DNA of 64,000 nucleotides from Ignavibacteriales bacterium (lineage in GTDB: Bacteria > Bacillota > Clostridia > Acetivibrionales > UBA4821): the NCBI GenBank assembly GCA_050260055.1, contig JBLNBO010000022.1, positions 207,365 through 271,364 of the forward strand, read 5' to 3'. Positions within the stretch are counted from its first letter, which is position 1. Each line of letters starts with the position of its first letter. This document shows, one piece after another, positions 1-20,970 of the stretch. A program made the translations under genes and the position numbers. The notes beneath the pieces are model-generated. The model was not told the origin of the DNA and made no database searches. It saw only the letters and a program-made list of their open reading frames with translations.

Positions 1-1608
1 AGTATAAATATTAAAGTCTTAAATGGTGTAACTATTTCTTATAAAATATCTATAGATTCAACCATAACTATTAAAATATTTGATAACCTGAAGAATCTTG
101 TCCGCATCATGGAAAAAGATATCGCTAAAAAGGCAGGAGCAAACTCCATTGTTTGGGATGGAAAAGATGACTCGGGAGTAGTTGTAGATAACGGTACTTA
201 CACATATAATATTACTGCAAAAAGTATATACGGAATTCTGTCTACTCCAGCTACAGGGATTATTGTGGTAGGAGATTGTCCCCAAATATCTTCAGTGAGC
301 GATTCTCCAGACCCATTTGATCCAAATACTCAAGATACAAGCGTTATTACCTTCAGATTGTCGGAAAAATCAATAGTGACGCTCCAGATATTTGACTCTT
401 CAGGTAACCTTGTTAAAACACTAATTGATAATGAACTTGAAGCTGGGATTAAAACAGCTTCATGGAATGGAAACGATCAAAACGGTCAGTGCGTGAGCAA
501 TGGTGCATATGTCTATTATATAAATGCAGTAAATGCTGAAGGCAAAAAAGCTCAACAGGTTTCTGGAACCATTAACATTGGAGAAGAATTGCCCTCATTA
601 TTCTCGTTGGGTTATAATCCTACTACATTGAATCCAAATAACTCTTATCTGCATATAAGCTATGTACTGACAAAATCAGGTAGAATTACAATAGATATAT
701 TTGACCCATCCAGCAATTTATTAGAAAGAATTGATGATCGCACTATAAAAGCTGCAGGACAAGATGAATCTACATGGGAGGGAAGGGATTCTTTAGGAGT
801 GCCGGTAAAAAGCGGGACATATAAGTTTGTGATTACTCTGGAAAGCTTATCTGGCCAAAAGATTGATACCAGAACTGTAAATTTTTCAGTAGTTAGCGAA
901 ACCGTTTTGCCTCCTACTATAACTAATGCAAAATTTGAACCAAACCCATTTAATCCTTCAACAAGCAGTAATGGTAAATTCACATTTACCCTCCCGAGAA
1001 TTGCTTATGTAACACTGCAAATATTCAATAGTTCAAATGAACTTGTGAGAACTGTTGCAGATAAAAAACAATCTCCTATAGCAAGTGAAATCTTCTGGGA
1101 TGGCAGTGATTCTTCTGGAAATATTGTCCCTGCCGGAGCGTACACTTATAAAATTGTTGCGGCTGATGAAACAGGATTATCAACTTCTCCTGTTACTGGC
1201 ATAATAACAGTTCTAGGGCCAATAATACCTGATGAGAAAAAACCTGTTGTGTCAAATATTAGTGCCAGCCCGAATCCGTTCAATCCTGATACCAATCAGC
1301 AAAGCAAGATTCAGTATTCGATTTCGATTGGAGCACCTGTTAAAATTACCATTTTAAATCAAAGTGGAAATTTGGTTGATACATTATTTGATGGCTCAGT
1401 AAATGCTGGGATTAATTCGGTAGTATGGGATGGTAAAAACAGTAGTGGGACAATTGTTAGCAGCGGCCAATATACATGTAAGATTCAGGCGTTTGATTCA
1501 TCAGGCCAGGCCGCAAGCGAGGTTTCGGGAACAATTCTAATTGATAAGGAACCTCCAAGTATAAATATTAATGATGTAGATCCAAATCCTTTTGCTCCAA
1601 TTGAATAG
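1..1608 (+). CDS. FlgD-type Ig-like repeat surface/secreted protein (5'-partial; frame is open from base 1)
   Basis: Repeated ~105-aa modules with P(N/D)PFNP...I.I(F/L)D..GNLV.TL...WDG.D..G..V..G.Y.Y.I.A; no stop in frame 1 upstream of ATG 109. Confidence 0.8.
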   Translation, partial: SINIKVLNGVTISYKISIDSTITIKIFDNLKNLVRIMEKDIAKKAGANSIVWDGKDDSGVVVDNGTYTYNITAKSIYGILSTPATGIIVVGDCPQISSVSDSPDPFDPNTQDTSVITFRLSEKSIVTLQIFDSSGNLVKTLIDNELEAGIKTASWNGNDQNGQCVSNGAYVYYINAVNAEGKKAQQVSGTINIGEELPSLFSLGYNPTTLNPNNSYLHISYVLTKSGRITIDIFDPSSNLLERIDDRTIKAAGQDESTWEGRDSLGVPVKSGTYKFVITLESLSGQKIDTRTVNFSVVSETVLPPTITNAKFEPNPFNPSTSSNGKFTFTLPRIAYVTLQIFNSSNELVRTVADKKQSPIASEIFWDGSDSSGNIVPAGAYTYKIVAADETGLSTSPVTGIITVLGPIIPDEKKPVVSNISASPNPFNPDTNQQSKIQYSISIGAPVKITILNQSGNLVDTLFDGSVNAGINSVVWDGKNSSGTIVSSGQYTCKIQAFDSSGQAASEVSGTILIDKEPPSININDVDPNPFAPIE

Positions 1609-1637
1609 ACACACTTGAGGGTATAATAACTTTAGAG

Positions 1638-1778: not shown

Positions 1779-2276
1779 ATGAAAAGAAAGCTATTTCTAC
1801 TTATACTTTGTTGTTTGTTCATATTTTCATTTAGTTTAGTTTCTTTTGCATCTAATAACAAAAGCGACAAACGGGTAAAAGCCAGAGTTGAAATGCAAGA
1901 AGAAAATGTTCAGCCCCAAAGTGTTTGCCAAAGCGTTTATCAAAGTGTTTATGCAAGAGAAGGATTTATACGTTCCATAAGCGCAACTGAGATTGTAGTT
2001 GGCAAAAAGAATATGGCTGATGAGACGTTGAAAATTAACACACAAACTGTTTTTAAGAATGTAAAGGCGAAACAAAAAACAGCTGTGCTTGCAGAACTAA
2101 AAGTAGGTATGAAGGTTCTTGTTAAATTTGATGAGAACAGAAATGCAACATTGATTAAGATTTTGCCCCAAAAAACAGAAAAAATAAGTAAGGATACAAA
2201 GGGCAAAAAAGCCTTAAAACACGAAAAGGCTAAAGTAAAAAACCACGCAAAGAAGAGTGGAAAAAAGAATAAATAA
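1779..2276 (+). CDS. Secreted hypothetical protein with Lys-rich C-terminus
   Basis: RBS aggagg; N-terminal signal peptide MKRKLFLLILCCLFIFSFSLVSFAS; small beta-rich domain. Confidence 0.7.
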   Translation: MKRKLFLLILCCLFIFSFSLVSFASNNKSDKRVKARVEMQEENVQPQSVCQSVYQSVYAREGFIRSISATEIVVGKKNMADETLKINTQTVFKNVKAKQKTAVLAELKVGMKVLVKFDENRNATLIKILPQKTEKISKDTKGKKALKHEKAKVKNHAKKSGKKNK

Positions 2277-2282
2277 TTATAT

Positions 2283-2323
2283 AAAAAGAAAGCAGTGAAA
2301 TTATATTTCACTGCTTTCTTTTT
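2283..2323. terminator. Bidirectional intrinsic terminator
   Basis: aaaaagaaagcagtgaaa-ttata-tttcactgctttcttttt between convergent CDS and tRNAs. Confidence 0.8.
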
Positions 2324-2406
2324 GGTGGAGGGGGATGGATTTGAACCATCGAAGCTATCGCAACAGATTTACAGTCTGCCCCCTTTGGCCACTCGGGAAC
2401 CCCTCC
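2323..2406 (-). tRNA. tRNA-Tyr (GUA)
   Basis: Reverse complement GGAGGGGTTCCCGAGTGGCCAAAGGGGGCAGACTGTAAATCTG...GGTTCAAATCC...CCA; long variable arm. Confidence 0.95.
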
Positions 2407-2411
2407 ATTTT

Positions 2412-2487
2412 TGGTGGGCCCTTAGGGATTCGAACCCCAGACCAACCGGTTATGAGCCGGCCGCTCTACCAACTGAGCTAAAGGCCC
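2412..2487 (-). tRNA. tRNA with CAU anticodon, most likely tRNA-Ile2 (lysidine)
   Basis: Reverse complement GGGCCTTTAGCTCAGTTGGTAGAGCGGCCGGCTCATAACCGG...GGTTCGAATCCC...CCA; GGGCC acceptor stem typical of Ile tRNAs. Confidence 0.9.
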
Positions 2488-2506
2488 GTTTCGTGACGCA
2501 AGTTAT

Positions 2507-2535
2507 AGTATAAGACAAAAGTAAACTACTGTCAA
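2507..2535 (-). promoter_or_regulatory. Sigma-A promoter of the tRNA pair
   Basis: TTGACA-17 nt-TATACT on the minus strand just upstream of tRNA-Ile. Confidence 0.8.
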
Positions 2536-2596
2536 GGGATAAAACCTAAAAAAGTATAGTTAAAATGTTCCGATTCAATGTATAATTGCTTAGCAA

Positions 2597-3691
2597 TTAT
2601 ACATTGAATCGGAAAAGCACAACATCTCCATCTTGGAAAACATATTCCTTACCCTCTGAGCGAACCAATCCTTTTTCTTTTGCTGATGATATTGAACCCT
2701 GTTTTACAAGGTCATCAAATGAAATTACTTCAGCTCTGATGAAGCCCTTCTCAAAATCGCTGTGAATCTTTCCGGCTGCTTGAGGAGCTTTAGTTCCTTT
2801 TGTAATTGTCCAAGCTCTGACTTCTGGAGTACCTGCAGTAAGGTAGCTTATAAGTCCAAGAAGCTTATATCCTGCTTGAATAAGCTTGTCCAAACCTGAT
2901 TGAGATAATCCCAAATCTTCTAAAAAAGCTTTGCGGTCATCTTCATCAAGTGAAGCAATTTCTTCTTCTATGTTTGCACATATAGAAATTACTTCTGAGC
3001 CTTCTTGCTTAGCAAAATCAAGCAATTTATTATAGTGCTGGTTCTGTTCCGGCTTTGCAACATCATCTTCAGAGATATTGGCAACATATAATACGGGCTT
3101 TGAAGTCAGCAAAAATACCGATTCGACAATTTCCTTTTCCTCATCGTTCATTGACATGGTACGAACCGATTTTCCGCTTTCAAGAGTAGTTTTTACTTTT
3201 TCGAGAGTTTCAAGTTCTGCCAGAAACTTCTTATCTCCTGATTTCATAGCCTTTTTAGTTCTGTCGATTCTTCTTTCAAGGGTTTCCATGTCTGAGAATA
3301 TCAGTTCAAGGTTTATTGTTTCAATATCGCGGAGAGGGTCAACACTGCCGTCTACATGGACAATGTTTGAATTCTCAAAACAGCGGACAACGTGCACTAT
3401 TGCATCAACTTCCCTGATATGTGAAAGAAACTTATTTCCAAGACCTTCGCCTTTGCTGGCACCTTTAACAAGACCTGCAATATCTACAAACTCAACAACT
3501 GCAGGGGTTACTTTTTCAGGGTTATACATTTCCGACAGAATATTTAGCCTTTCATCAGGTACGCTAACTATTCCGACGTTTGGTTCTATTGTGCAAAAAG
3601 GATAATTGGCGCATTCAGCCCCAGCCTTTGTAATTGCATTAAATAAAGTACTTTTGCCGACATTCGGCAGTCCTACAATTCCTAATTTCAT
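2597..3691 (-). CDS. ychF: Redox-regulated Obg-family ATPase YchF
   Basis: GIVGLPNVGKST, NYPFCTIEPN, DIAGLVKGASKGEGLGNKFL, C-terminal TGS domain. Confidence 0.98.
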   Translation of the reverse strand: MKLGIVGLPNVGKSTLFNAITKAGAECANYPFCTIEPNVGIVSVPDERLNILSEMYNPEKVTPAVVEFVDIAGLVKGASKGEGLGNKFLSHIREVDAIVHVVRCFENSNIVHVDGSVDPLRDIETINLELIFSDMETLERRIDRTKKAMKSGDKKFLAELETLEKVKTTLESGKSVRTMSMNDEEKEIVESVFLLTSKPVLYVANISEDDVAKPEQNQHYNKLLDFAKQEGSEVISICANIEEEIASLDEDDRKAFLEDLGLSQSGLDKLIQAGYKLLGLISYLTAGTPEVRAWTITKGTKAPQAAGKIHSDFEKGFIRAEVISFDDLVKQGSISSAKEKGLVRSEGKEYVFQDGDVVLFRFNV

Positions 3692-3962
3692 AGTAATTAC
3701 CTCATATATTCAAAGTGAAATCATTATACATTAATTAGCTGGTTAAAAACAATATTTATTTAAAAGCAAATAAAATATACAGTTATAAAGTATCACATAA
3801 AAAAAGACAGTATTTGACAAAAAAATCTAATCAGCGTATAATCAAAGGTAAGGTAATAGTCAACAACGATTCTTGTACTGGCTCAAGTATTTAATTACAA
3901 GGGAAAAGACAATTTCATTTTAGCTGATAGAGTTCAGAATTTTGTAATGAGGGGTGAGTATA

Positions 3963-4937
3963 GTGGAGGAAGCTAAAAGATGTAATAGCGCTGCACCAAA
4001 GAAAGAGACTATAAAAGGCCCAGATGGTAAAGTATTATATAATTATATAGGTTATGATCCCCAAAAAGCAGAGAAGGCAGGACTTGTAGGGTCTCCAATT
4101 GAAATATTTGAAGTCAAAGGTCCCAATGACTTCAGAGTAAGCGAAGTTAGAGTTGTAAAAGATGGCCAGTCACTATCCCGTTCATCCGGTTATACTAGTT
4201 TAAGTGATGGGAATTTAAATATTACTATTAATAGCGATATTCTTAGACAATGTTATGGGATACAAACAGAATATGATACCTTATATGAGGGGAATAAAAT
4301 TACATTTGGTATGCTGAAATGGGGTACAAGACCTGAGGTCTCCGGGTTATATATAAAAGTTGAGGATGCAGCAGGAAATAAATCGCAAATAGCAACAGCT
4401 GATAAAAAAATTGATGAAGAATACCTAAGGGGCTGGGATGATAAAGTCTATACAGAAATATCCGGAGACAAAGCTGAAGAACATATAGAAGTAGTAAGAG
4501 CTATGTTAAAAAAATCACAAGGACAGGATGAAAGAATAAATATTCTCAGGGGAGTTTTTAATGTACTAGAAAATAAGGAAATGGACGGAATAGTATTCAA
4601 CAGAGGGTACGGCAGAAATACAGCTGCTAAAACTACTAATATGCAAAGATGCATTTTGGATAAGCTATCAGGCGATTTTGACAAAATCATTGGACCCACT
4701 ATGAAGAAATTTAATGGATTGCCTCGTACAAATATAGAAGAGGTGCACGATGAATTAAAGGGTATTAAACAAGCGGCACATAAATTTATTAAGAGTGGCA
4801 AACCTGAAAAGGCTCTTACTCTAGTTCCTGGAGCTATAGAAAATTCAGCGGATAAGCCAGTTGTGGAAGTTTCAAGGAATAAGCCGAAGAAGCCGACTGC
4901 GTATGGGCTAAAAAGAACGCTTAGAGATACTAGATAG
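3963..4937 (+). CDS. Hypothetical protein (accessory island)
   Basis: ~324-aa ORF; GTG start 6 nt after gaggggtg; TTGACA..TATAAT upstream; terminator downstream; no recognised motif. Confidence 0.65.
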   Translation: MEEAKRCNSAAPKKETIKGPDGKVLYNYIGYDPQKAEKAGLVGSPIEIFEVKGPNDFRVSEVRVVKDGQSLSRSSGYTSLSDGNLNITINSDILRQCYGIQTEYDTLYEGNKITFGMLKWGTRPEVSGLYIKVEDAAGNKSQIATADKKIDEEYLRGWDDKVYTEISGDKAEEHIEVVRAMLKKSQGQDERINILRGVFNVLENKEMDGIVFNRGYGRNTAAKTTNMQRCILDKLSGDFDKIIGPTMKKFNGLPRTNIEEVHDELKGIKQAAHKFIKSGKPEKALTLVPGAIENSADKPVVEVSRNKPKKPTAYGLKRTLRDTR

Positions 4938-5009
4938 CCTTGAATATAGCAGCGTTTCCCAAATATCAAAGCATCAAGTAAAAATATTTTATTATAAATG
5001 CGGTTAACA

Positions 5010-5037
5010 GGGAAAGGTTTAAACCTTTCCTTTTTTC
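5010..5037 (+). terminator. Intrinsic terminator
   Basis: ggaaaggttt-aaacctttcc followed by T-run. Confidence 0.65.
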
Positions 5038-5120
5038 TATTCCATTAAAAGCAAATAAAAGACTTTTACACAAGTAAGGAAATATATTTTTGTGCAACTT
5101 ATCAATAGAAGCAGATTGCT

Positions 5121-5285
5121 AAAGATGATATAATTAAATTATCAATCTCTTTTATTAATAATTGCTTTTATGTCACACTCTTATTTGAGTAGCCAGGTTA
5201 TGCTTTATGAGGATTATTTCTTCTTGCATGATTTTTGCTGCTCTTTTTGCTGCAATGGTTGTAATCAATTTTATTAAATTGAAAA
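5121..5285 (+). ncRNA. Putative structured 5' leader, copy A (with -10 box TATAAT)
   Basis: Clearly alignable with 5781-5935; long stem gagtagc-caggttatgc / gcatgatt-tt-gctgctc followed by T5. Confidence 0.55.
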
Positions 5286-5304
5286 TAAGAAAGGGGAAAA
5301 GAAA

Positions 5305-5640
5305 ATGGTTTTTACAGCGACACAATTTGAAGAGGAAGTTCAAAAGAATCCAGTTGTAATTGATGGGTTTACTCCTGCGATTGATGCAGCTCTTCAAGCA
5401 GCAGCTAAGAAAAGAGAAAAAGAAACTAAAGTTAAGGTTTGTTTTCCGGATAAAATAATGCATGATATTCTCGAAATAAAGGACAAGTTAAAAAAAGAAT
5501 ATGAGAATGCCGGATATACTGTATCTTGGGAAACTAAGCCTTATTACGACTATCATGATGGCCCTGGGCCGCATTATCCTGAAGTCAACTCGGATGAAGA
5601 AGGCTGGTTTGCAACTCTAATATTGCGAGTCAGAAATTGA
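5305..5640 (+). CDS. Hypothetical protein, 111 aa
   Basis: RBS aaagggga, own promoter, leader and terminator. Confidence 0.75.
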   Translation: MVFTATQFEEEVQKNPVVIDGFTPAIDAALQAAAKKREKETKVKVCFPDKIMHDILEIKDKLKKEYENAGYTVSWETKPYYDYHDGPGPHYPEVNSDEEGWFATLILRVRN

Positions 5641-5644
5641 AGTT

Positions 5645-5686
5645 AAAACAAATGAACCCCGGTTAAGCCGAGGTTCATTTGTTTTT
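5645..5686 (+). terminator. Intrinsic terminator
   Basis: aaaacaaatgaacc-ccggttaagccg-aggttcatttgttttt. Confidence 0.8.
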
Positions 5687-5780
5687 TAAGCCAAATTAAT
5701 ACTATTGATTATTAAAGTATCTTTATAATATTAACATTTCTAAAATCCTGAGCTCTGCCAATATATAGACATAAATGGGA

Positions 5781-5935
5781 AAAGATGATATAATAAAAAG
5801 AACGACACTCTCGTTTTTATCATGTTTTTATGTCTAGCTCCATAATTGAGCAGTCAGGTTGTGCCTTGTAAAGATTTTCTTTCTGCATAATTGGCTGTTT
5901 TTTCATGCAGTGGACTAGGCGCTCATTGAGTGTCA
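5781..5935 (+). ncRNA. Putative structured 5' leader, copy B
   Basis: Homologous to 5121-5285; stem gagcagtcaggttgtgc / gcataattggctgttt; outer stem gacactc/gagtgtc. Confidence 0.55.
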
Positions 5936-5967
5936 AAATTTCGGAAAAAGGAAAGGGGATTACACAA

Positions 5968-6588
5968 ATGAAGAATTTGGGTTGCAATTGGGAAAAAGGA
6001 TTTTATGCTCCGGAGGCTGTTGACACAAGCAGTGTCGTATTACCCGATGAACTTCTGCCATTGTGCAATGTGCTTGCGAAAAATTCACACGACATTTGGG
6101 CAGCCAAAAGACTGTCAGAGGGTGTGACCTATGGAAATGGAGAGAACCAAAACCCGTATCTGGTTCCTTTTGAACTCCTTGACGATGAGGAAAAGAAGGT
6201 TAACCTGATAACCATACAGGAACCCATTAAAATTCTTATGCTGATGGGATTCGATGTAACTCCGCCTGCGCAGCTGCCGGTGGCTGAACTCCAAACCATC
6301 GAAGCATTCAAGCCCGAACCCATTGATATTTCCGGCATTGTTATCGATGAAGCGCTGGAAGCGGCTGCTGATGCAATTGCATACAACGCACACGAAGTAT
6401 GGTCCATTGACCGGCTCCAAGCTGGCTGGATTTGGGCAGAAGTTAGGGATAATGATAAAAAGTTACATCCCTTGCTGAAGCCTTTTGAGGAGCTTACCGA
6501 AAACGATAAGTCCTACGATAAAGACTTAGCTTTCGGAAACCTCAAGGCAATTGTTGCTTTGGGAGGCTCGATTGTAAAGAGACAGTAG
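5968..6588 (+). CDS. Stand-alone tandem RyR (ryanodine receptor repeat) domain protein
   Basis: Two repeats: LAKNSHDIWAAKRLSEGVTYG..NPYLVPFELL.EEK and IAYNAHEVWSIDRLQAGW.W...DNDKKLHPLLKPFEEL.E.DKSYD; RBS aaagggga before ATG 5968. Confidence 0.85.
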   Translation: MKNLGCNWEKGFYAPEAVDTSSVVLPDELLPLCNVLAKNSHDIWAAKRLSEGVTYGNGENQNPYLVPFELLDDEEKKVNLITIQEPIKILMLMGFDVTPPAQLPVAELQTIEAFKPEPIDISGIVIDEALEAAADAIAYNAHEVWSIDRLQAGWIWAEVRDNDKKLHPLLKPFEELTENDKSYDKDLAFGNLKAIVALGGSIVKRQ

Positions 6589-6601
6589 TAAAAATAAGCA
6601 G

Positions 6602-6640
6602 TAAATAACAAGACCGCCCATAGGGCGGTCTTGTTATTTA
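6602..6640. terminator. Bidirectional terminator
   Basis: taaataacaagaccgccc-ata-gggcggtcttgttattta between convergent RyR and Nudix genes. Confidence 0.85.
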
Positions 6641-7158
6641 CAACATAATTCATTTAGCAGTAACAATTCTTCCTTTGCAGTCCCATCAAAACTATTCTGT
6701 AGGAAATTTTCAAAATAAGCTGTAATGCTGCTGCCCATTTTTTGAAGGAAACAGCCTCCAACCTCAGCTGGAAAATGCAGCGCATTATATGAGCCTTTTA
6801 AAATTTCAAGCAATTCCTCCCAGGTTACTTCATAGGCAAAAGAATGAATATTAGCTTGCTGGTCTGAGAATGTCGCCAGCGGATTCATACGTTCAGGCCT
6901 AATTTCGTATCCGATTTCTTCATAAGCCTCGCGAATTACACCATCCATGATTTCTTCATCTGATTCAATATTTCCGCCAATAAAACCAATTTTACCATTG
7001 TAACGCATACACATTAATGTCATTGGCAGTACTAAAGATCTATTATCTTCTTCTTTATCAAGATAGTTCTCAAATGGTTTTCCATGCTTTGTGTAAATGC
7101 ATACAAATCCATGCTGCTTTTTTTCTTTTTCGCGTTTGCCTAGAAAATCTCTTTCCAT
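6634..7158 (-). CDS. Nudix hydrolase, NUDT16 (U8 snoRNA-decapping / IDP phosphatase)-like
   Basis: Nudix box GGNIESDEEIMDGVIREAYEEIG; LMCMRYNGKIGFIGG and FLQNSFDGTAKEELL resemble NUDT16 motifs. Confidence 0.8.
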   Translation of the reverse strand: MERDFLGKREKEKKQHGFVCIYTKHGKPFENYLDKEEDNRSLVLPMTLMCMRYNGKIGFIGGNIESDEEIMDGVIREAYEEIGYEIRPERMNPLATFSDQQANIHSFAYEVTWEELLEILKGSYNALHFPAEVGGCFLQKMGSSITAYFENFLQNSFDGTAKEELLLLNELCCK

Positions 7159-7319
7159 TTTTACATCCCCTTTCTTAAACTTTCCCGTATTTTAAAGCCA
7201 TCCTTTGATTTACTGTACATGTTTGGACGTGATTATCACTCCTAGCTTTTCAATAATTACAAACACAATTTAGTGCTGTATTAATTTGTATGTTATATGA
7301 AGGTTTATAAAACACTTTG

Positions 7320-10300
7320 TTATTTTTCATAAGCTGGGACAGAAGGGTTTCTTTGTTCGGTTTTATCTTTAGTGTCTTTTGCTTTTTCAATATATAAAGA
7401 CTTTGCTACTTCACTCAAACTTGAAAAGCTTTTGCCGCCTTTCTCTTCTACTATAGCTGCTATTTCTTGATAGGAAGTTTTTTGTTCTTCGGTTAGAGGC
7501 CTATCGCTTAAATAACAGAAGAGTGTCCGATCGGGTCTTTTACAAGCATCATCTATAACCTCTGCATACGAATAATATCCTTGAGCCTTCTCGGTAACGG
7601 CATATAAAACATTACTGCAAACTTCCCGCTGTTTTATTTCTTCTTGCATACATTCTGGTGTCCAATCAGCAACAACAGGATTATAGTATTCAATATTTAC
7701 ACCAAGATACTCGCTGATTTTTCCTAGCATCGGGGTAAAATCTTCTTCTCTCCACATATCATTATTACATGTTCCGCCAAGGAATAATCGGTTCTCTTTT
7801 TGAACAGATTTTTGTGCCCTTAGATGCATATCTGTCGGCGGATTTGGATTTTCTAATATGTATTGTTCTTTTTTCTGCTCAGAAGAAAAAGCTTTGCCCC
7901 CATTACTTTCAATCATTTTTGCAACTTGTTTTATTGATTTTAATATATGTGGTTCTTTGCCTGCATAGCTTTCTTCATCGAAATAAAATATAGTATTATC
8001 AGGGTTTTCATTGCTTGACCTTACTGCATTAACAACCGCCATAATTGCTTCGTGCTCACCCATACTGCTGTTAAGTGAGAAGGTGCTATAGGGCTGAAGG
8101 GCCTGCTTACCTATATTGGGCAAATATTCTTTAATCTTTTCGGAAAATATCTCTGGGTGCTTGTCATATAATTTTACAAGTAATTCTTCAGCTGTTCCAA
8201 AGTCATATCCTTCCCCAGCTAATATCTCAGATTTATCAGTTGATGCACCTGCAGGGCCGTTCATAAGGCTTATTCCTATATCATTCATATTATGTGCACG
8301 TTGAATCATGTCTCTTACAACGCCGCCACCACCGATTGCTACCATTTCGCCATCTCTTTCCTGTACAAAGGATAGAACTGCATCCGGCAAATCATACCAG
8401 GTGTTAGCAATACGGCCGTCTAGGGTCAATATTTGCGCATGTGTAATTGTATCTTTTTCAACATCATTTGTTGCATCATTCGCAGCTTCTTGTGTAAAAG
8501 TACCTAGAACAACCAATTGATTATTTGAAGATTTATTTCTTTCGTTAGCTGCTTGATGTAATTCTTTCTCAACTCCATGGTTAGTTCCGCCTGTTACAAA
8601 GTATGCTTTTTCCGGATTAACCACATCAACCAATACACGCATCAATTCTGTAATTTGCTGTTGATGTTCTGTAGAAATATTGGGCCAGCTGCTTTTTGAT
8701 GCCCCTGTTATTAAAATCGGTAGTTTATCATGTATTGCTTCTTCAATCTTATATGGTTCTGTAATAGCGTTTGTATGTTCAATTTTCGATGCTAAGTAAC
8801 GATGCAATTCTTCCAATTCTTTTTTATGCATTTGCTCAACTTCTTGCGTATAAACAGGATTTCCATTTTTATATACTGTAGAACTAAAGACATCTCTTAA
8901 TGTTTTACCTTGGGAAAGTTCATTTTGTAATGACGCTTCTTTTTCTGAGAATCTTTTGTCTGCAAGCGCAATAATTTCTTGCTCTTTTTTATCAATTGCT
9001 CCAAAATCACTAACGCCTGCGGTATTTGCTAATAAGGCTTCAACTTCTCCAGAAGTACCATATATGCCAAATCCGTCTGAGCCTAGTACAACGTCTACTC
9101 CTGTTTCCAAATATTTTTGTATAGGAACATCCTGAATATTATTTATATTGTTTAAGCTTAGATTTGAACTCATATTGAATTCAATGACTGCTCCAAGTTC
9201 ACCGGCTAATGCTAGTGTTTCTTCATCTACTCCGTAAAGGCCATGCCCGATTCGAATACGAGGAATCTTTACTGAATCGTTTGTTTTCTTCTTCTCTTCA
9301 TAAGCCTGTTTAATGGTTAATAATGTTGTTTTAACATTATCCTGAAATATTGGGTTTTCTCCAGCATGAACTCTGATTACGAAATCTGGGTCATTTTCCA
9401 TAGCCCATTCAGCTAAACTGGTAATTTCGCCTGCAAAACTTTCTGTTGGATTGGTCTCGTGGCCCATAAAATCACAGCCAACAACATAAGGACTTTGAGC
9501 AACAGTTTTTATTCTATCTACTTCATCAGCATTCCATTCCTTGTCTGAATGCCTCCATAAAGCTGCTAAAAAACGTACTTTAACTCCTATTTGAGCTTCA
9601 ATTTCCGGCATTTTTTTATGAATCGTTTCTAAATAGTCTAAATCACTTATTATTGCAGAATGTGATAGCTCGACGTATTTCGTCCCATTTTCTGCATAAG
9701 CCTTTGCAATCTCCATTAAAGAGTCTTCAAACAGTTCTTTATTTTTTGTGAACGGACCTCTTGCCGTATATACCTCTTCCATTTTATTAAATGTTTCTTG
9801 TTTACAGGTTGATATTGATAACCTTTCAGTTAATATTCTTTTTGCCTCTTCATCTTCCATTAATTCAGATAAAGGAATCTTTTCATCTCCTGTTTTACTA
9901 AATTTACTTATATCAATACCAAACTTCTGTAAATCTCTTGCAGGATAATTGATATTATGTTTTAATCCTAATTCAATTAATTTATCAGTTGGTAATACGC
10001 CTGCAAAGTGGGTGTGCAAATCGGTTTGTGGTACAAAAGAAGGCTTTTGGCTGCGGTCAAACGGTACTCCGTTTGTATTTTTCCCTTGGGCAAGTAATCT
10101 GGTCTCAAAAGATGTCAACTTATTAACACTTGACCAACTTCTCTCATCTGGAGAAATTCTGGCAAATAGCTGAGAACCAATATAGAAACCATAAAGGCCG
10201 GGCTGGTCTAATTTCTCAATATGTATAATCTTTTTTAAGTTAGACTGCAGATTTTCTGCTCTCGCACTTTTTTCTAAAGATTCAAGTACATAACTTATTT

Positions 10301-10370
10301 GTCCTTCGGAGGAAAAATTAAAATCAAGCATTAAATTTTTTGCATAATCTAAAAAACTGTTTTCATCCAT
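7320..10370 (-). CDS. Multidomain protein: adenosine/AMP deaminase + SLOG + degenerate and intact nucleoside 2-deoxyribosyltransferase-like domains
   Basis: DLHTH, GHE, HAGE, RIGHG, SN, GSDG (ADA metal/catalytic set); ITGAS, VTGGTNHGV, IGGGG (SLOG); LFLGGTCN..WRE, YYNPVVADW, YSYAE (NDT-like); RBS ggagg before ATG 10370. Confidence 0.8.
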   Translation of the reverse strand: MDENSFLDYAKNLMLDFNFSSEGQISYVLESLEKSARAENLQSNLKKIIHIEKLDQPGLYGFYIGSQLFARISPDERSWSSVNKLTSFETRLLAQGKNTNGVPFDRSQKPSFVPQTDLHTHFAGVLPTDKLIELGLKHNINYPARDLQKFGIDISKFSKTGDEKIPLSELMEDEEAKRILTERLSISTCKQETFNKMEEVYTARGPFTKNKELFEDSLMEIAKAYAENGTKYVELSHSAIISDLDYLETIHKKMPEIEAQIGVKVRFLAALWRHSDKEWNADEVDRIKTVAQSPYVVGCDFMGHETNPTESFAGEITSLAEWAMENDPDFVIRVHAGENPIFQDNVKTTLLTIKQAYEEKKKTNDSVKIPRIRIGHGLYGVDEETLALAGELGAVIEFNMSSNLSLNNINNIQDVPIQKYLETGVDVVLGSDGFGIYGTSGEVEALLANTAGVSDFGAIDKKEQEIIALADKRFSEKEASLQNELSQGKTLRDVFSSTVYKNGNPVYTQEVEQMHKKELEELHRYLASKIEHTNAITEPYKIEEAIHDKLPILITGASKSSWPNISTEHQQQITELMRVLVDVVNPEKAYFVTGGTNHGVEKELHQAANERNKSSNNQLVVLGTFTQEAANDATNDVEKDTITHAQILTLDGRIANTWYDLPDAVLSFVQERDGEMVAIGGGGVVRDMIQRAHNMNDIGISLMNGPAGASTDKSEILAGEGYDFGTAEELLVKLYDKHPEIFSEKIKEYLPNIGKQALQPYSTFSLNSSMGEHEAIMAVVNAVRSSNENPDNTIFYFDEESYAGKEPHILKSIKQVAKMIESNGGKAFSSEQKKEQYILENPNPPTDMHLRAQKSVQKENRLFLGGTCNNDMWREEDFTPMLGKISEYLGVNIEYYNPVVADWTPECMQEEIKQREVCSNVLYAVTEKAQGYYSYAEVIDDACKRPDRTLFCYLSDRPLTEEQKTSYQEIAAIVEEKGGKSFSSLSEVAKSLYIEKAKDTKDKTEQRNPSVPAYEK

Positions 10371-10620
10371 AACTGCGCCTCCAATTAATATGTTTCTTAT
10401 CATGAACAAATAATTAGTTTAGTATTTATCTAATTGCTTATGTAATTGAGTTATTTTTTATAAATGCTTTTCAATAATAATTATATCATATTTTTGGAGA
10501 AACTACTATTTATTGAAAAATACAGGTAGTTTGTTGACAGGCAACTGCTTGTGAAAATTGACAAAATATGATAAAATAATAATAAAGTATGAACCTGTAA
10601 ATTATAAGGGGGTCGTGACA

Positions 10621-11289
10621 ATGGCAAATGATTTTAAAAAGGTTGATAATATTTTAGGGTATGTTTCTGAAGGCATTAGTAATGGAACATTTACAGTTGA
10701 TGAAGTCGCAAAATTTGCTAGAATAAGTGCTGTACAAGGTGAGGTAGGGCAGGAAGTTGTCACAAAAATGGCAAATGGGTTAGAAGAAACCAGAAACACG
10801 GTAAAACTTGATGAAAAAACAGGACAGCCTGGTTGGATTGTAACCAATCCTGGTGGAGAACAGTATATTGTTGAGGATTCAGTCTTTGCCAAAAAATATG
10901 AATTAGACCCCGAAAATAATAGTCAATATAAGCCCAAGGGAGGACCTGCGTTAGCAACACAAATAAACGAGGATATAACTTTTGAGGCTCCTTGGGGTGG
11001 AGATATGAATATAGCTGCTGGCGGATACTTAGTTCTTGGGGGAAAAAATGATATTTATGGGATTCAAGAACAGGAATTTAACGATACATATAAGCCAACA
11101 GGTAAATCTAATCAGCAGTCATTAGAAGAAGCAAAAAAATTATTGGGAATTGAACAGGATAAAATTAAAGTTGCAGATATTCAAGAAGCAGTAGAGGGCG
11201 TTAAGCCAGGTAAGACTATGAGTCAACTGCTTGACAATGCTGAGAAGAAGGAAAAGCAAGCTGGGAAGGATGAAATTGGTGACCGATAG
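10621..11289 (+). CDS. PGDYG-domain-like protein with charged C-terminal tail
   Basis: Duplicated motif GWIVTNPGGEQYIV....FAKKYE / APWGG.M...AGGYLV.....DIYGI....FNDTY; RBS aaggggg before ATG 10621. Confidence 0.65.
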   Translation: MANDFKKVDNILGYVSEGISNGTFTVDEVAKFARISAVQGEVGQEVVTKMANGLEETRNTVKLDEKTGQPGWIVTNPGGEQYIVEDSVFAKKYELDPENNSQYKPKGGPALATQINEDITFEAPWGGDMNIAAGGYLVLGGKNDIYGIQEQEFNDTYKPTGKSNQQSLEEAKKLLGIEQDKIKVADIQEAVEGVKPGKTMSQLLDNAEKKEKQAGKDEIGDR

Positions 11290-11303
11290 GGGAGGCAGCT
11301 TTT

Positions 11304-11546
11304 ATGAATAATGATTACAAGGAAGCTGTTAGTGAAGTTAATCAAATAATTATGCTTATGTCAGAAGAAGACAGAGAAAAGATTCCTCTCAGTTTTAGAG
11401 AATTCATTAAATCTGAGGCTAAGCCTTACTATGGCAAAAAAATAGTAGCCAATATTCCTCTAAAAGATCAAAATATTTCTGAGGGAGCAAAGGAAATATT
11501 ATATTTTATCTCCAAGAAGTTTTTTGGTCAAAATAATAAAAAATAA
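11304..11546 (+). CDS. Small helical hypothetical protein, closely coupled to the PGDYG gene
   Basis: RBS ggggagg 14 nt after upstream stop; 80 aa. Confidence 0.75.
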   Translation: MNNDYKEAVSEVNQIIMLMSEEDREKIPLSFREFIKSEAKPYYGKKIVANIPLKDQNISEGAKEILYFISKKFFGQNNKK

Positions 11547-11585
11547 TTATCATCATATATCTTTAAAAAGATTATATTTATAAAG

Positions 11586-11621
11586 AAGGCTGAAAACAAC
11601 AAAAATGGTTTTCAGCCTTTT
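11586..11621 (+). terminator. Intrinsic terminator
   Basis: aaggctgaaaac...gttttcagcctttt. Confidence 0.7.
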
Positions 11622-12015
11622 ATTCATATAAATAAATATTAAAATATCAAATAAGTTAGAAATAGCTTATGAAATATTTCGATTAATTATTGATGTTATT
11701 ATAAACTAAACAATAGATTTCATTATCATGATAGGCTTTGCAAGTATATTCAAAAATGATGGTTCAAATTATATGTATTCAACCCCGCTTTTCTGTGGTA
11801 TACTATTAACTGTTGAGGCAGATATGGATTATAAATCCATATTACGGGTAGAATAATTACTATTGAAACTTGTTCGGAAAACATTAATAGTAATTTAAAC
11901 AGAGAAAATGAAAAGGCTTTTGTTTTTGTACCTAAAAATAGGCCAAAAAGCTTTATTTGCGTGTTTTTATTTACTTATGCCTTGAAACCCAAAAAATAAT
12001 ATTGGAGGTATAAAA

Positions 12016-13683
12016 GTGGTTTCAAAGAAAAACAAACTAAAGATAATTCCTATTGGTGGACTAAATGAAATAGGAAAGAATATGACTGTATTTGAGTATG
12101 GAAATGACATAATTGTAGTTGATTGCGGGTTAGCTTTCCCCGAAGACGATATGCTTGGAATTGATTTGGTTATTCCTGATACGGCATATCTAGAAAAGAA
12201 TATTGCTAAAATTCGTGGGATAATTATTACCCATGGACATGAGGATCATATTGGTGCACTTCCTTATATACTGAAAAACCTAAACGTACCTGTTTACGGT
12301 ACAAGACTTACCATGGGACTAATAGAATATAAGCTGGAAGAGCACGCTATGATATCAACCGTTAAGCTTAATACTATAAAACCAGGAGATATCGTAGACT
12401 TAGGGGTATTTAAGGTTGAATTCATTCGCTCGAATCATAGTATTGCAGATGCTGTCGCATTAGCAATTAACACACCTATGGGTGTGGTTATTCATACGGG
12501 AGATTTTAAGATTGATTACACCCCGATAGATGGAGATGTAATTGATTTGGCACGTTTTGCTGAACTGGGGAGTGAAGGGGTTCTTGCCATGCTTGCAGAT
12601 AGTACCAATGTTGAGAGGCCTGGCTATACAATGTCTGAAAGTACTGTGGGTGATTCGTTTGATGAGCTGTTTATAAATTGTGATAAACGAATAATAGTTG
12701 CTACCTTTGCGACCAATATTCATAGGGTTCAGCAGATTATAAATTCAGCAGAAAAATTTGATAGGAAGATTGCAATTTGCGGCAGGAGCATGGTAAATGT
12801 TGTTAATGTTGCCATGAGGCTGGGATATATGAATATTCCTGAAGGTATGCTTATTGATGTAGATGCTATTGATAGATATAAACCCAACCAGCTTGTCATT
12901 ATTACAACTGGAAGTCAGGGTGAGCCAATGTCTGCGCTTTCAAGGATTGCGTCTTCAGACCATAAAAAGATTGAGATAATGCCTGGAGATAGAGTAATAA
13001 TCTCTGCTTCGCCCATACCAGGAAATGAGAAGCTTATCTCAAGAGTAATCAATGAATTGTTCAAAAGGGGAGCAGATGTAATATATCACGGAATTATGGA
13101 TATCCATGTATCTGGGCACGCATGTCAGGAAGAACTTAAGCTAATACACACACTTGTAAAGCCTAAATATTTTATTCCTGTTCACGGAGAATACAGGCAC
13201 CTAAGACAGCATGCATTGCTTGCAGAAAAGCTTGGAATGGATTCGGAAAACATCTTCTTAATGAACAATGGGAAAGTTCTTGAATTAGGATTGGATAAAG
13301 CCCGCATAAATGGAAGCGTAACGGCGGGAAGGGTTCTTGTAGACGGATTAGGAGTCGGTGATGTTGGGAATATTGTGCTTAGAGACAGAAAGCACCTTGC
13401 ACAAGATGGACTGATAGTTATTGTTGTAACAATAGATAAAGAAAAAGGTGTAGTTATTGCTGGACCTGATATAATCTCAAGAGGTTTTGTATATGTTAGA
13501 GAATCAGAAAACCTTATTGAAGAAATAAGGGTTGTAGTAAAAGCTAAGCTCAGAGAATGTGAAGCTAAAAAGGTTACTGATTGGACTACTATCAAGAATG
13601 CAGTTAAAGAGGGGCTTAGAAACTTCCTTTATGAAAAGACTAAGAGGAGTCCGATGATACTACCCATAATAATGGAGATATAG
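12016..13683 (+). CDS. rnj: Ribonuclease J
   Basis: GGLNEIGKNM, THGHEDHIG metallo-beta-lactamase motif, HVSGH, PVHGE. Confidence 0.97.
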   Translation: MVSKKNKLKIIPIGGLNEIGKNMTVFEYGNDIIVVDCGLAFPEDDMLGIDLVIPDTAYLEKNIAKIRGIIITHGHEDHIGALPYILKNLNVPVYGTRLTMGLIEYKLEEHAMISTVKLNTIKPGDIVDLGVFKVEFIRSNHSIADAVALAINTPMGVVIHTGDFKIDYTPIDGDVIDLARFAELGSEGVLAMLADSTNVERPGYTMSESTVGDSFDELFINCDKRIIVATFATNIHRVQQIINSAEKFDRKIAICGRSMVNVVNVAMRLGYMNIPEGMLIDVDAIDRYKPNQLVIITTGSQGEPMSALSRIASSDHKKIEIMPGDRVIISASPIPGNEKLISRVINELFKRGADVIYHGIMDIHVSGHACQEELKLIHTLVKPKYFIPVHGEYRHLRQHALLAEKLGMDSENIFLMNNGKVLELGLDKARINGSVTAGRVLVDGLGVGDVGNIVLRDRKHLAQDGLIVIVVTIDKEKGVVIAGPDIISRGFVYVRESENLIEEIRVVVKAKLRECEAKKVTDWTTIKNAVKEGLRNFLYEKTKRSPMILPIIMEI

Positions 13684-13689
13684 GTCATA

Positions 13690-13725
13690 GAAATCCGATT
13701 TTGATTAATCAAAATCGGATTTTTT
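13690..13725 (+). terminator. Intrinsic terminator
   Basis: aaatccgattttgat-ta-atcaaaatcggattttt. Confidence 0.8.
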
Positions 13726-13748
13726 GTATGTATAACTCATTATTTTCG

Positions 13749-14317
13749 GGTTGCGCTAAAGTTATATCTCAAAAGAGGTAACCTAAGGTTCCTCTTTTGG
13801 AATCTCCTCCTCTAGCCCCCAAATTCTTATCAAATAGCTTCTATGATTTTGCTACATTCATTCTCGCCGTCGTATCAGGACTCCCATCCATGATCGCTGA
13901 TACTAGATTTTGCATCGTGCAAAATCTACGGCTTCATTCACTCCGCTAATCAAAAAGCTCTAATGCCAAGAATTTAATCAGGGCTGAAAACCAAAAATCT
14001 TCTTGCTCGCTTATGTAACTGTTGTGAAAAATATTCGTGATGCTCTCGATGAAGATAACTGACGACGCGGGAAAATGAACATGGATGTTCATTTTAGGCG
14101 CAATGAGTCATGGATGCGAATCTTGTGCCGACCGCCAAAGGAAGTTTTAGAATCGTTAAGAGTATAGAACATTTTTCAGTAAACCGATAACAGCCACCAC
14201 GGCGAGTGGCGACTTTTCCGCCGGTTTTGGTCGTTCAAAAGCGGTAAATAAGTTTTTTTGTTTAAGAAGAGGAATTTGTTCGAGGCTCATTTTTTGAAAA
14301 GTAACTTTAGAGCAACC
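13749..14317. mobile_element. MITE/BIME-like non-coding composite element with 16-bp terminal inverted repeats
   Basis: ggttgcgctaaagtta (13749-13764) and taactttagagcaacc (14302-14317), 1 mismatch; internal large hairpins; module shared with 33461-33520. Confidence 0.6.
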
Positions 14318-18605: not shown

Positions 18606-19703
18606 TTAAGATTTTTTGAGTATTTTTTCAAGAACTTTTCTTCTAAGGTTTTCTATACTTTCAAAATTCATATTCGGAACGTAATAGGTTTCAAGTTTAT
18701 CGTGAAGTGCTTTTGCCTGACTTATTTTTTCAACTGCTTTACTAAATAAGTTGTCAAATTCAGTTGTATCAAATTCTAATACTTCACTGTATTTATCAAG
18801 AATGCTTGTGTTTAGACATTTATCCAAATCGGTTACTCCGATGGAGGATGAAATATCAACAGGGTGATATTTTCTGCTTGTTACAATTGCAGTTTTAAGC
18901 TCAGGAATTACGATGTGTTCGACAATATCGGGGTTGAAAGCACAGTGGTAGCATTCAATGTTTAATCCTTTTACTTCAGCCGATTCCATGATTTTAGAGA
19001 ATATCTTTTTATGGCCTTTACCATATGGACCTTTAACAATATAGACATTTCTCTGAGCTTCGATAAGATTTGATAAGTAATTTTTTGGCCCTTCGGGAGT
19101 TATGGCGCTTATAAAGAGATGCCTTTCTTTTGATAGCTTATCTAGAGGTTCGATTTCTTCAAAGATTTTTGACGAAAGTAATTGAGCTTCTTTAACAACC
19201 ATTCTCATGTTAATTGCTTCATCATAAATTTTTTCAATATCATTGTATATATATTTCCCTGCACCTAGATATTTGTATGCTCTGGCAAAAAGACCGCTTA
19301 TTTCAGAAGTAATCAGAAGAATATCATCCTTGCTTTTCCTTAGTCCTTCTTCATTCCAAAAATCGCCCAGATGAATGATTTCATCAATTGCTCCAGGATG
19401 CTTTGGGTCTACAATATGGGGAGCTGTACCATCAATCATAGCAATTTTTAAATCAGTGATAACAATTCCGTCAAGAGAATTATTATCGCTTGAACAATGC
19501 ATGAATTCCACATTGTGTCCCATTGAACTCATTTCAAGGCCTATTCTTCTCATAAAGGTTGATTTGCCAACGCCCGGCCCGCCTTTTAGCACGAATATCC
19601 TGTTGGCTTCATTTTGAGGTAGTATGTAGTCATAGAAAGAATGAAACCCATTGCAAGTATTTCCACCTGGGAAAGCATGCATGATTTTGCCTTCCTGTTC
19701 CAT
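18606..19703 (-). CDS. PRK06851-family P-loop protein
   Basis: FPGGNT..GF.SFY, KGGPGVGKST, HCSSD..SLDG, DGTAPH; second degenerate P-loop half. Confidence 0.85.
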   Translation of the reverse strand: MEQEGKIMHAFPGGNTCNGFHSFYDYILPQNEANRIFVLKGGPGVGKSTFMRRIGLEMSSMGHNVEFMHCSSDNNSLDGIVITDLKIAMIDGTAPHIVDPKHPGAIDEIIHLGDFWNEEGLRKSKDDILLITSEISGLFARAYKYLGAGKYIYNDIEKIYDEAINMRMVVKEAQLLSSKIFEEIEPLDKLSKERHLFISAITPEGPKNYLSNLIEAQRNVYIVKGPYGKGHKKIFSKIMESAEVKGLNIECYHCAFNPDIVEHIVIPELKTAIVTSRKYHPVDISSSIGVTDLDKCLNTSILDKYSEVLEFDTTEFDNLFSKAVEKISQAKALHDKLETYYVPNMNFESIENLRRKVLEKILKKS

Positions 19704-19797
19704 TATTATACTTCCTTTCTTGCACGTTATATTTAACTTATATTATTGAGGAGTTGTCAAATATGTTACAAAAAAAAGAACCCTTGCGATGCAAGGG

Positions 19798-20970
19798 TTA
19801 GATTTCTTTTAACTGCTTTATATCATCTTTAAATGTAATTAACTGCAGTGACTTATCTTTATCACCGTTAATGTAATTACGGTATAATGCAAGATATTCT
19901 CTAAGGAGAATGACATTATCTTTATAGTCTTCATCTGACTGCCTTTTAAGTTTTTTCTGACAGTAGACTTTGGATATCAGCCATATGAATTTCAAATCAG
20001 GTGTCAAGTCATAAACTTTCAACCGGTCAAGAGATTCATTGGCTTCATCAAGATTCCCGAGTTTGGTCTGTACAAAGCAGTACTGTACCGTAGCACTTAC
20101 ATAAGCTGAGGTGGAGCTGGAATTGCTTTGTAACTGGAGAAGTTTTTCGGTTGCTTCTTCATATTTTCCGCGGCGGGAGTTCTGAACCTGCATCCATACA
20201 TCTGCATTTTCAACCAGCTCGATAATCCAATCAGGCGACTTTACCCTTTCCCTGGCGCTTTCCACAAGAACCTCAAATTCTTTCAACAATGAGTCGAAAG
20301 CGCCTGCATCTTCTTCTTCAGCCAGGCCATACTTATATGTCTGAGCGTATACATACAGCCAATAAGCAAAAACGTACTGATGCTCCCATGGCGGCCTTTC
20401 TGGATTGGCTGTGATTTCTTCGGCTTTGTTTATATACGGTCTGAAATACTTCTTAGCTTTATCCTTCTTTTTCATTGCTTTAAGCGTAATGCCATATGGA
20501 GCAAGCAAGCTTTGCAGAACTTGTTTCAGGATATTTCTGCTGTGTCTGATGCTGGAGACTGTGCCTTCCAATAAAACAACCTGAGCTTGAAACAGCTGAG
20601 TCTTATAAAGCTCTTGTTCTGCAGATATGATTTCAATTTTAAGGTCCTTCTCATTTTTCGTAGGCTTTTTCCCTTTGCGGCTTAAGACAGCCTTATTATG
20701 CTTGCTGTTAAGGCCCTTAATAAAGTCTTCCTGACTTTTTGCAGAAGCTTTCAAATATTCTTCGCATGTAAAGAAATTAGAGCTGTCATACAAAACCATT
20801 TGCCCTGAAAGTTTTAAAATCCTTGCCTGATCATCTGCCGGTATTCGCGAAAAATACAAGTAATCTGAAATAATTGCAAGAATGTCATTGCTGAATTTTG
20901 ATAAGCCTAAATGTTTTTCCGCGTCCAATGCCTCTTCTAAAGTTTGCTTATACTTGCGCGGTGTACCCAC
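19798..20970 (-). CDS. Hypothetical alpha-helical protein (TPR-like C-terminal half)
   Basis: 390-aa ORF, RBS gaaaggggg before GTG; helical repeat-like pattern. Confidence 0.65.
   Translation of the reverse strand: MGTPRKYKQTLEEALDAEKHLGLSKFSNDILAIISDYLYFSRIPADDQARILKLSGQMVLYDSSNFFTCEEYLKASAKSQEDFIKGLNSKHNKAVLSRKGKKPTKNEKDLKIEIISAEQELYKTQLFQAQVVLLEGTVSSIRHSRNILKQVLQSLLAPYGITLKAMKKKDKAKKYFRPYINKAEEITANPERPPWEHQYVFAYWLYVYAQTYKYGLAEEEDAGAFDSLLKEFEVLVESARERVKSPDWIIELVENADVWMQVQNSRRGKYEEATEKLLQLQSNSSSTSAYVSATVQYCFVQTKLGNLDEANESLDRLKVYDLTPDLKFIWLISKVYCQKKLKRQSDEDYKDNVILLREYLALYRNYINGDKDKSLQLITFKDDIKQLKEI

Follow-up and report, generated by a model that had tools for sequence, protein, structure and literature searches.

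Cad1/CAAD, a type III CRISPR-Cas protein that converts ATP to ITP, joins an adenosine deaminase (ADA)-fold effector to a Rossmann-like nucleotide sensor, and a Nudix hydrolase has been reported as its partner (PMC12993439). Two other anti-phage enzymes of the ADA fold, RADAR RdrB and Kongming KomA, likewise act on adenine nucleotides and are described as making (d)ITP or dIMP (PMC9994260; bioRxiv 10.1101/2024.12.20.629578). A SLOG domain, on the other hand, shares a chain with its effector in ThsA of type I Thoeris (SIR2-SLOG) and in TRPM2, the SLOG part of which is the MHR1/2 region (LSDAT). Here we describe a gene on the minus strand of a 64,000-nucleotide stretch of contig JBLNBO010000022.1 (Ignavibacteriales bacterium, GCA_050260055.1), hereafter the window, whose 1016-residue product carries an ADA barrel, a SLOG domain and two NDT-like modules in one chain. 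The reading that we favour, at about even confidence, is that of a SLOG-gated adenine-nucleotide deaminase and N-glycosidase, a CARF-less analogue of Cad1/CAAD with a NUDIX partner that is used in conflict.

The gene lies in a single, uninterrupted open reading frame (ORF) at 7320..10409 (−) of the window's ORF list. The ATG at 10370 was taken as the translation start because GGAGG lies 8 nt upstream of it, homologues align from this Met and the database record P0002 begins there; the gene is accordingly 7320..10370 (−), and residue numbers throughout are those of the 1016-residue product. An earlier note on this DNA had proposed a four-module architecture of deaminase, SLOG, inactive NDT and intact NDT. 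Every motif that it quoted was found in the window at its place and all four domain calls stand; however, the architecture also includes an additional N-terminal domain of ~110 residues and an 85-residue linker, so that the order is N-terminal domain, ADA barrel, helical linker, SLOG, module 1 (truncated PF15891-like) and module 2 (intact PF15891-like). The N-terminal domain (residues 1 to about 112; 10035..10370, −) is kept in all homologues, with L85, T86, F88, E89, R91 and R106 as the invariants of a 40-sequence alignment (A1), and it has no match in Pfam, NCBIfam, PHROG or Atlas. The possibility, raised in the same note, that the protein is an already characterised salvage enzyme found no support in a literature search, which returned no paper on an ADA-SLOG-NDT architecture. 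Nor was a paper describing an ADA-SLOG protein found, in a search that did not cover the 2015 SLOG/DrHyd survey of Burroughs et al. (NAR), which is said to have defined both groups and may already depict such a protein.

The ADA-fold catalytic domain (about residues 113-462; 8985..10034, −), delimited by PF00962 and by alignments with ADA entries of the Protein Data Bank (PDB), scores 68.2 bits against Pfam PF00962 (cut-off 27, E 8.6e-19). Its motifs DLHTH (10008-10022), HAGE (9357-9368), RIGHG (9240-9254) and GSDG (9072-9083), all on the minus strand, had been taken to form a full ADA catalytic set, and alignment A1 bears this out: H119/H121, H335, E338, H376 and D432 are all there, are invariant or at least 90% conserved among the 40 aligned family members, and line up with the TDLHRH, RIGHG and NTDD motifs of the solved bacterial ADA 6n91. 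In mouse ADA, Asp19 contacts the ribose hydroxyls of the substrate. The domain nevertheless lacks both Asp19 and Asp296 of canonical nucleoside-specific ADA (Add/ADA1): the Asp19 position (the residue after HxH-x) is occupied by Ala123, at least 90% conserved, and the Asp296 position (after the metal-binding Asp) by Gly433, invariant in the 40 sequences. NCBIfam equivalog scores are also far under their cut-offs, e.g., 62 against 216. For the ATP-specific TaqCad1, too, exactly this pair of positions is described as deviating from canonical ADA, with Gly264 and Asn549 (PMC12669630, EMBO J 2025); that is, the positions agree with those of the 1016-residue protein and the residues differ. The PADLOC CARF_ADA model matches the ADA part at E 1.3e-11 (model positions 249-552), and besides it no PADLOC model matched at E<=0.1. 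Judged by these residues, the ADA site resembles that of ATP-specific Cad1 rather than that of a nucleoside deaminase, and the earlier description of a "nucleotide-depleting" enzyme agrees with the findings; deamination followed by deglycosylation, as the same note proposed, would be a possible sequence of its reactions.

While similar to Cad1/CAAD in these respects, we note some differences of the 1016-residue protein. First, its sensor is a SLOG domain placed C-terminally of ADA, whereas that of Cad1/CAAD is an N-terminal CARF domain, and the Pfam scan found no CARF family here. Second, it carries the extra N-terminal domain and the NDT-like cassette and is encoded on an accessory island that holds no CRISPR-Cas genes; no cas gene was found on the island or in its scanned flanks, the rest of the genome not having been searched for type III genes. 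Third, its sequence similarity to the solved Cad1 chains is below significance (E 0.37-1). For comparison, Cad1 is hexameric. The island also differs from RADAR and Kongming loci, having neither a gene for the RdrA ATPase nor genes for KomB and KomC (HAM1-like and SIR2).

The helical linker between ADA and SLOG (about residues 463-547; 8730..8984, −) has helices at model residues 2-18 and 28-35 with a predicted local distance difference test score (pLDDT) of about 90 in the AlphaFold2 (AF2) model m938700f6a00a. The TRPM/LSDAT-like SLOG domain that follows (about residues 548-757; 8100..8729, −) was placed by its AF2 fold and by structure searches, and its glycine loops ITGAS (residues 554-558; 8697-8711, −), TGGTNHG (593-599; 8574-8594, −) and GGGG (680-683; 8322-8333, −) are conserved in the family. 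An AF2 model of residues 512-787, made from 51 sequences, reached pLDDT 91 and a predicted template modelling score (pTM) of 0.85. The best Foldseek matches of this model were the MHR1/2 regions of TRPM2, TRPM8 and TRPM4 (E 8e-8, with 187 matches at E<=0.001), and in a VIA fold search of 48,161 chains the top 24 all belonged to the SLOG superfamily (Z 11.2-15.8), the first unrelated fold appearing at Z 8.0. With the glycine loops in place, which in the SLOG fold follow strands 1, 2 and 5, this upholds the SLOG call. The 24 include TRPM5/2/7/8 (TRPM Z 13.5-15.8), TM1055, MCP, LOG, YgdH (9us2, Z 13.2), DprA, ThsA (SLOG Z 12.2-12.3) and YpsA. The Pfam LSDAT models PF18139 and PF18171 (LSDAT_euk and LSDAT_prok) gave 17.7 and 16.8 bits against cut-offs of 25.7 and 25.4 (E 2-4e-3), and the modelled domain is LSDAT-like by fold only. 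The effector attached to it is an ADA domain, whereas ThsA has SIR2 and TRPM2 an ion channel; Pfam found no SIR2 domain in the 1016-residue protein. A Thoeris-like system with a TIR partner was considered and rejected, since the protein's own genome has no match to PF13676 (ThsB/TIR).

SLOG domains of the TRPM/LSDAT kind bind ADP-ribose, and the catalytic motif of the LOG phosphoribohydrolases is PGGxGTxxE. At the corresponding place the SLOG domain here has the loop IGGGGVVRD, whose D687 is conserved in at least 90% of the 40 sequences. Since TRPM/LSDAT-type domains bind ligands, a sensor is the likelier function of this one, rather than a second hydrolase. An alternative that we regard as unlikely, though still as a serious contender, is regulated purine interconversion or salvage, in which ADA would deaminate AMP or adenosine so as to supply IMP and the synthesis of guanine nucleotides, and SLOG would be an allosteric purine or alarmone site or a LOG-like phosphoribohydrolase; the NDT-like module and NUDIX would recycle bases and clean the pool, and the island would be a piece of useful metabolic capacity. 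The presence among the SLOG fold matches of LOG-family enzymes and of YgdH, which we take to be the ppGpp-regulated nucleotide nucleosidase PpnN, speaks for salvage, whereas the ADA site, which like that of ATP-specific Cad1 has lost the nucleoside-binding Asp19 and Asp296, speaks against it.

Module 1 (about residues 772-853; 7812..8057, −; motif NPDNTIFYF at 7980-8006, −) was delimited by the family hidden Markov model (HMM) and by an internal repeat, as it is 34% identical to module 2 over 53 residues (E 3e-6). It matches only profile positions 86-163 of the family HMM (38.9 bits, E 1.7e-13 in a 5-sequence search), does not have the FLGGT..W..NP half, and has Asn781 in place of the family's conserved Glu; AF2 predicts only helices for it when modelled alone (pLDDT 52-80). 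On these sequence features it is a truncated, presumably inactive PF15891 copy, in keeping with its description in the earlier note as a degenerate NDT. Module 2 (about residues 859-1004; 7359..7796, −), delimited by HMMER relatives and AF2 fold, carries LFLGGTC (7767-7787), YSYAE (7560-7574) and RPDRTLFCYL (7509-7538; all −), and with them the family residues FLGGT 863-867, W873, P898, E911, E937 and D941. An exhaustive HMMER search queried with the last 255 residues brought up 1060 proteins at E<=1e-3, every one of which aligned to module 2, with phmmer E values down to 1e-29, and all 34 relatives sampled match PF15891 at E<=1e-3, most of them above its cut-off.

The AF2 model of module 2 (pLDDT >93) shows the five-stranded Rossmann-like fold of the PF15891 Nuc_deoxyri_tr2/DrHyd superfamily (NDT, DNPH1/Rcl, YtoQ, BDI_0649). 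Its best VIA matches were YtoQ 8of6 (Z 13.3, root-mean-square deviation 2.4 over 124 aligned residues) and 4mcj (Z 12.6); then came NDTs and SPARTA TIR, both at Z about 10.5, and DNPH1 at Z 9.8, the NDT and DNPH1 matches together spanning Z 9-10.5. Together, the relatives, motifs and modelled fold agree with an intact NDT-like domain, as previously proposed. In NDT and DNPH1, which serve nucleotide salvage and catabolism, the catalytic Glu nucleophile begins the helix that follows strand 3. Module 2 keeps the Glu that its family has at the start of helix 3; E937 is at least 90% conserved and lies in the first turn of model helix 172-183 (helix 3). Module 2 has no detectable sequence similarity to any solved chain, a profile of its PF15891 alignment (A2) gave no meaningful match among PDB sequences, and its degenerate-plus-intact tandem ends a deaminase. 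The same tandem was seen in 3 of the 150 listed relatives (P0142, P0148 and P0186), in P0148 and P0186 ahead of TIR domains. That NDT and DNPH1 structures match module 2 is a further point for salvage.

The fold of module 2 also bears on a different, distinctly improbable arrangement, a one-chain circuit in which the PF15891 domain, when triggered, would act like a TIR or ADP-ribosyl cyclase and make an ADP-ribose-type messenger from NAD+, SLOG would read it, ADA would convert the ATP pool to ITP, and NUDIX would clear the signal or the ITP as a reset. Module 2 matches TIR about as well as NDT (SPARTA TIR Z 10.5, NDT Z 10.5), and the closest relation of the SLOG domain is with MHR1/2 of TRPM2, which binds ADP-ribose, next to a resemblance to ThsA SLOG; both the TIR match and these SLOG likenesses suit such a circuit. 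The DrHyd superfamily is, moreover, treated as likely NAD+-directed in papers of the Aravind group (PMC9503650; bioRxiv 10.64898/2026.01.15.699771). However, our literature search found no activity, including on NAD+, for any PF15891 protein, and the closest folds, YtoQ and 4mcj, bring no function to compare, the literature located on YtoQ giving none.

The wider PF15891 subfamily keeps company that is relevant to both of these alternatives. Among its fusion partners are TIR arrays that carry WD40, TPR or LRR repeats, NUDIX, and an internal head protein of phiKZ, and module 2 relatives are present in 21 phage records, Lak megaphages and phiCD418 among them, as well as in 2 plasmids. The recurrent neighbours of the subfamily in 78 loci, scanned with one representative per cluster and including many Chitinophagaceae kin, are patatin (16 loci), nSTAND1 (15), SLATT_1 (7), SIR2+TIR (3) and TIR-CD225 (2). 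A subfamily that accompanies TIR, SIR2, SLATT, patatin and STAND genes rather than salvage genes argues against salvage, and its fusion to TIR arrays and its place beside SLATT, SIR2-TIR, and NAMPT plus phosphoribosyl pyrophosphate (PRPP)-synthetase genes argue for the one-chain circuit. In two loci (L062:528-4317 and L066) the PF15891 gene is embedded in a cluster made up of genes of the PRPP-synthetase-like, NAMPT-like and DUF4291 types, a context which hints that PF15891 proteins handle NAD+ or its precursors. P0153 and P0208 have NUDIX domains fused to PF15891, but these are only distantly similar to the NUDIX of the island (best E 0.73), and by sequence the PF15891-NUDIX link holds at the superfamily level only.

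The core of the protein, i.e., the N-terminal, ADA and SLOG domains, had 154 matches at E<=0.001, mostly of about 800 residues. The 119 non-self homologues listed are 775-983 residues long and 43-51% identical, and none aligns past residue 782; family HMMs found a PF15891 domain in none of the 119 and a C-terminal PGDYG domain fused to the core in 5. As far as the homologues listed go, the four-module fusion is seen in the 1016-residue protein only, and the core forms a large uncharacterised family of gut and rumen bacteria of several phyla. The absence of PF15891 from all 119 implies that the core must work without it and, with a PF15891 gene nearby in only 3 of 42 loci, counts against the one-chain circuit. 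These 42 genome loci, in which neighbours were found by tblastn at E<=1e-3, form the sample for all gene-neighbour counts of the core. The three stand-alone PF15891 genes (L012, L016 and L017), all above the Pfam cut-off, are 27-29% identical to module 2, compared with 45-57% for other family members, from which it follows that the link between core and PF15891 arose more than once.

PGDYG is the other recurrent companion, fused to the core in 4 of the 42 loci and adjacent to it in 6. A third is a family of ~150 residues found by tblastn and clustering beside the core in 7 of the 42 and often translationally coupled to it; it has no Pfam, PHROG or PADLOC match, and in several Clostridia loci it begins at or a few bases from the ADA-SLOG stop (members at L008:10445-10882, L014:10501-10956, L016:6207-6662 and L031:10460-10906). 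In one Saccharibacteria locus (L010:5403-8004) a 430-residue gene resembling zeta-toxin/AAA_33-type P-loop kinases stands between the PGDYG gene and the core, and a second PGDYG paralogue lies upstream there, as also in L006 and L011. Of the 137 ORFs no more than two genes away from the core, 11 matched defence models (E<=1e-8); they are spread over 10 of the 42 loci, the neighbours including Cas9 plus Cas1, MADS mad2/mad3, SoFic and a restriction-modification methyltransferase. In the metagenome-assembled genome of an uncultured alphaproteobacterium (L004:5378-9540), Cas9 and Cas1 are the genes that immediately follow the core on its downstream side, and in kin of this locus (L002, L003 and L005) MADS mad3-like genes adjoin the core.

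In its own genome the gene stands on an accessory island of 8.04 kb (8,038 bp) at 3736..11773, between ychF and the RNase J gene, as delimited by blastn of window positions 1-14000 against L044. In a genome of the same genus, G001, only 26 bp separate ychF from the RNase J gene (protein identity 91%) and the island is absent, and among 41 related genomes the core gene was found in its own genome only, so that the gene is clearly accessory in this genome. Marker genes rate the own genome as 100% complete, and it contains neither a second PF00962 gene nor a further PF15891 gene. A sole PF00962 gene would fit salvage; relatives G001, G002 and G004, however, have no PF00962 gene at all, and the lineage therefore does not need one. 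The presence of the gene in 1 of 41 genomes, on an island, likewise tells against salvage.

Next to the gene, 161 bp downstream on the same strand with no terminator-like site in between, lies a Nudt16-like NUDIX hydrolase gene (6634..7158, −; Pfam PF22327 E 6.9e-16, NUDIX E 3.2e-7), and the two genes probably form one operon. The hydrolase is nearest to the phage NUDIX family phrog_9999 (E 6.2e-33), which again does not favour salvage, and its adjacency recalls the Nudix partner of Cad1/CAAD. A terminator-like hairpin with a 19-bp stem (6601..6641) separates it from the convergent RyR gene beyond. Divergent from the main gene is that of a PGDYG-domain protein (10621..11289, +; Pfam PF14083 E 3.4e-6), whose start is ORF residue 22 in the Atlas record. 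For PGDYG all Atlas leads were sub-threshold, a profile of its alignment (A4) gave no meaningful match among PDB sequences, and no paper on it was found in the literature. The PGDYG gene is followed by an ORF of 80 residues (11304..11546, +) that by tblastn and clustering resembles the N-terminal half of the ~150-residue family, with no Pfam match.

From these observations we infer the following route for the favoured SLOG-gated deaminase and N-glycosidase. The ADA barrel would deaminate adenine nucleotides (ATP/dATP or AMP/dAMP) to inosine nucleotides, and SLOG would be the allosteric sensor that switches the barrel on, the part played by CARF in Cad1/CAAD. The probably co-transcribed NUDIX hydrolase would turn ITP/IDP into IMP and probably sits between the deamination and deglycosylation steps; its human relative NUDT16 is described as a (deoxy)inosine diphosphatase (PMC2919730). 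Module 2 would then cut the N-glycosidic bond of (d)IMP, of another nucleotide or possibly of NAD+, making the loss irreversible, with module 1 as a non-catalytic relic or scaffold and the PGDYG protein as a dissociable regulatory or ligand-binding subunit. Such a route would most likely be used against phages or other mobile elements, through abortive infection or growth arrest; this role is supported by the island, by the company of the PF15891 subfamily and by the defence-model matches near the core.

Several observations weigh against this reading. Within two ORFs on each side of the core, 31 of the 42 loci have no defence-model neighbour and 1 more has no scanned neighbour, counts for which there is no baseline rate, and the defence-neighbour matches of L002, L003 and L005 are not independent, these loci being kin. 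The core lineages, many of small genome, are Saccharibacteria, Gastranaerophilales, uncultured Alphaproteobacteria, Bacilli and Clostridia. Both the scarcity of defence neighbours and this concentration in small-genome bacteria of gut and rumen lend weight to salvage. None of the 42 other loci showed a relative of the island's NUDIX or RyR gene next to the core (tblastn E<=1e-3), and no PADLOC model spans the full length of the 1016-residue protein. Module 2 scores 25.6 bits against the PF15891 profile (27.1 in the genome search), below the cut-off of 30, and its E937 is a putative catalytic Glu on conservation and helix position rather than on a residue-level superposition. The search of the own genome for TIR_2 (PF13676) gave no match and no signal-making enzyme was found in it; the want of a TIR_2 gene to supply a signal in trans would suit the one-chain circuit. 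The island holds no integrase or recognisable mobility gene and has a GC content like that of its flanks, and no ADA-SLOG core was found in IMG/VR viral contigs, phage records or plasmids.

The last point also tells against the idea that the gene is counter-defence cargo, in which SLOG would bind host immune nucleotides (cyclic ADP-ribose isomers, oligoadenylates) that would be inactivated by adenine deamination, by the glycosidic cut and, with NUDIX, by a pyrophosphate cut. Relatives of PF15891, NUDIX, RyR and PGDYG all occur in phages, and SLOG, Macro, NADAR and Nudix domains of phages have been proposed as signal degraders (PMC9503650). However, the core has no PHROG match either, the island carries no phage structural or integration genes, and the gene is chromosomal in all 42 loci; we consider this the least credible of the alternatives and very unlikely.

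The remainder of the island consists of a 227-residue protein with two RyR domains (5905..6588, +; Pfam PF02026 E 1.9e-50 in 2 stretches), which is island cargo and has weak matches to three phage families of no assigned function, and of two unfamiliar genes for 327 and 111 residues (3954..4937 and 5305..5640, +). The latter two have no significant family match in Pfam, NCBIfam, PADLOC or PHROGs and are missing from the syntenic loci of relatives. The island ends show no clear flanking repeat, since the two matches seen there, one direct of 10 nt and one inverted of 12 nt, lie in AT-rich DNA and are taken as chance, and promoter-like sites were not above chance (30, against 32.3 in shuffles). 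Elsewhere in the window, a 365-residue P-loop protein with weak STAND-type N-terminal matches (NPHP3_N, nSTAND3) stands beside a 390-residue ORF with no Pfam match (18606..20970, −), and the two may form a further pair of accessory or defence genes. The protein encoded at 109..1608 (+) combines five FlgD Ig-like repeats with a CHU_C type IX secretion sorting domain.

To our knowledge, CARF-ADA (Cad1/CAAD) and RADAR are the cases of sensor-gated ATP deamination described to date. If the SLOG-gated deaminase that we favour proves true, SLOG, like CARF, can drive nucleotide-pool effectors, and a SLOG ligand would await discovery in gut bacteria with no CRISPR or TIR partner. The island gathers predicted enzymes for the full route from ATP through ITP and IMP to the base, namely deaminase, NUDIX and N-glycosidase, which makes this the most informative member of the family, and the 1016-residue protein ties the core to PF15891, a domain that is widespread in phages and defence. 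Were the one-chain circuit true instead, no generator-sensor-effector fusion of this kind would have preceded the protein, and PF15891 would gain its first assigned activity. Were the metabolic explanation true, the family would be an unrecognised regulated AMP/ATP deaminase of gut bacteria.

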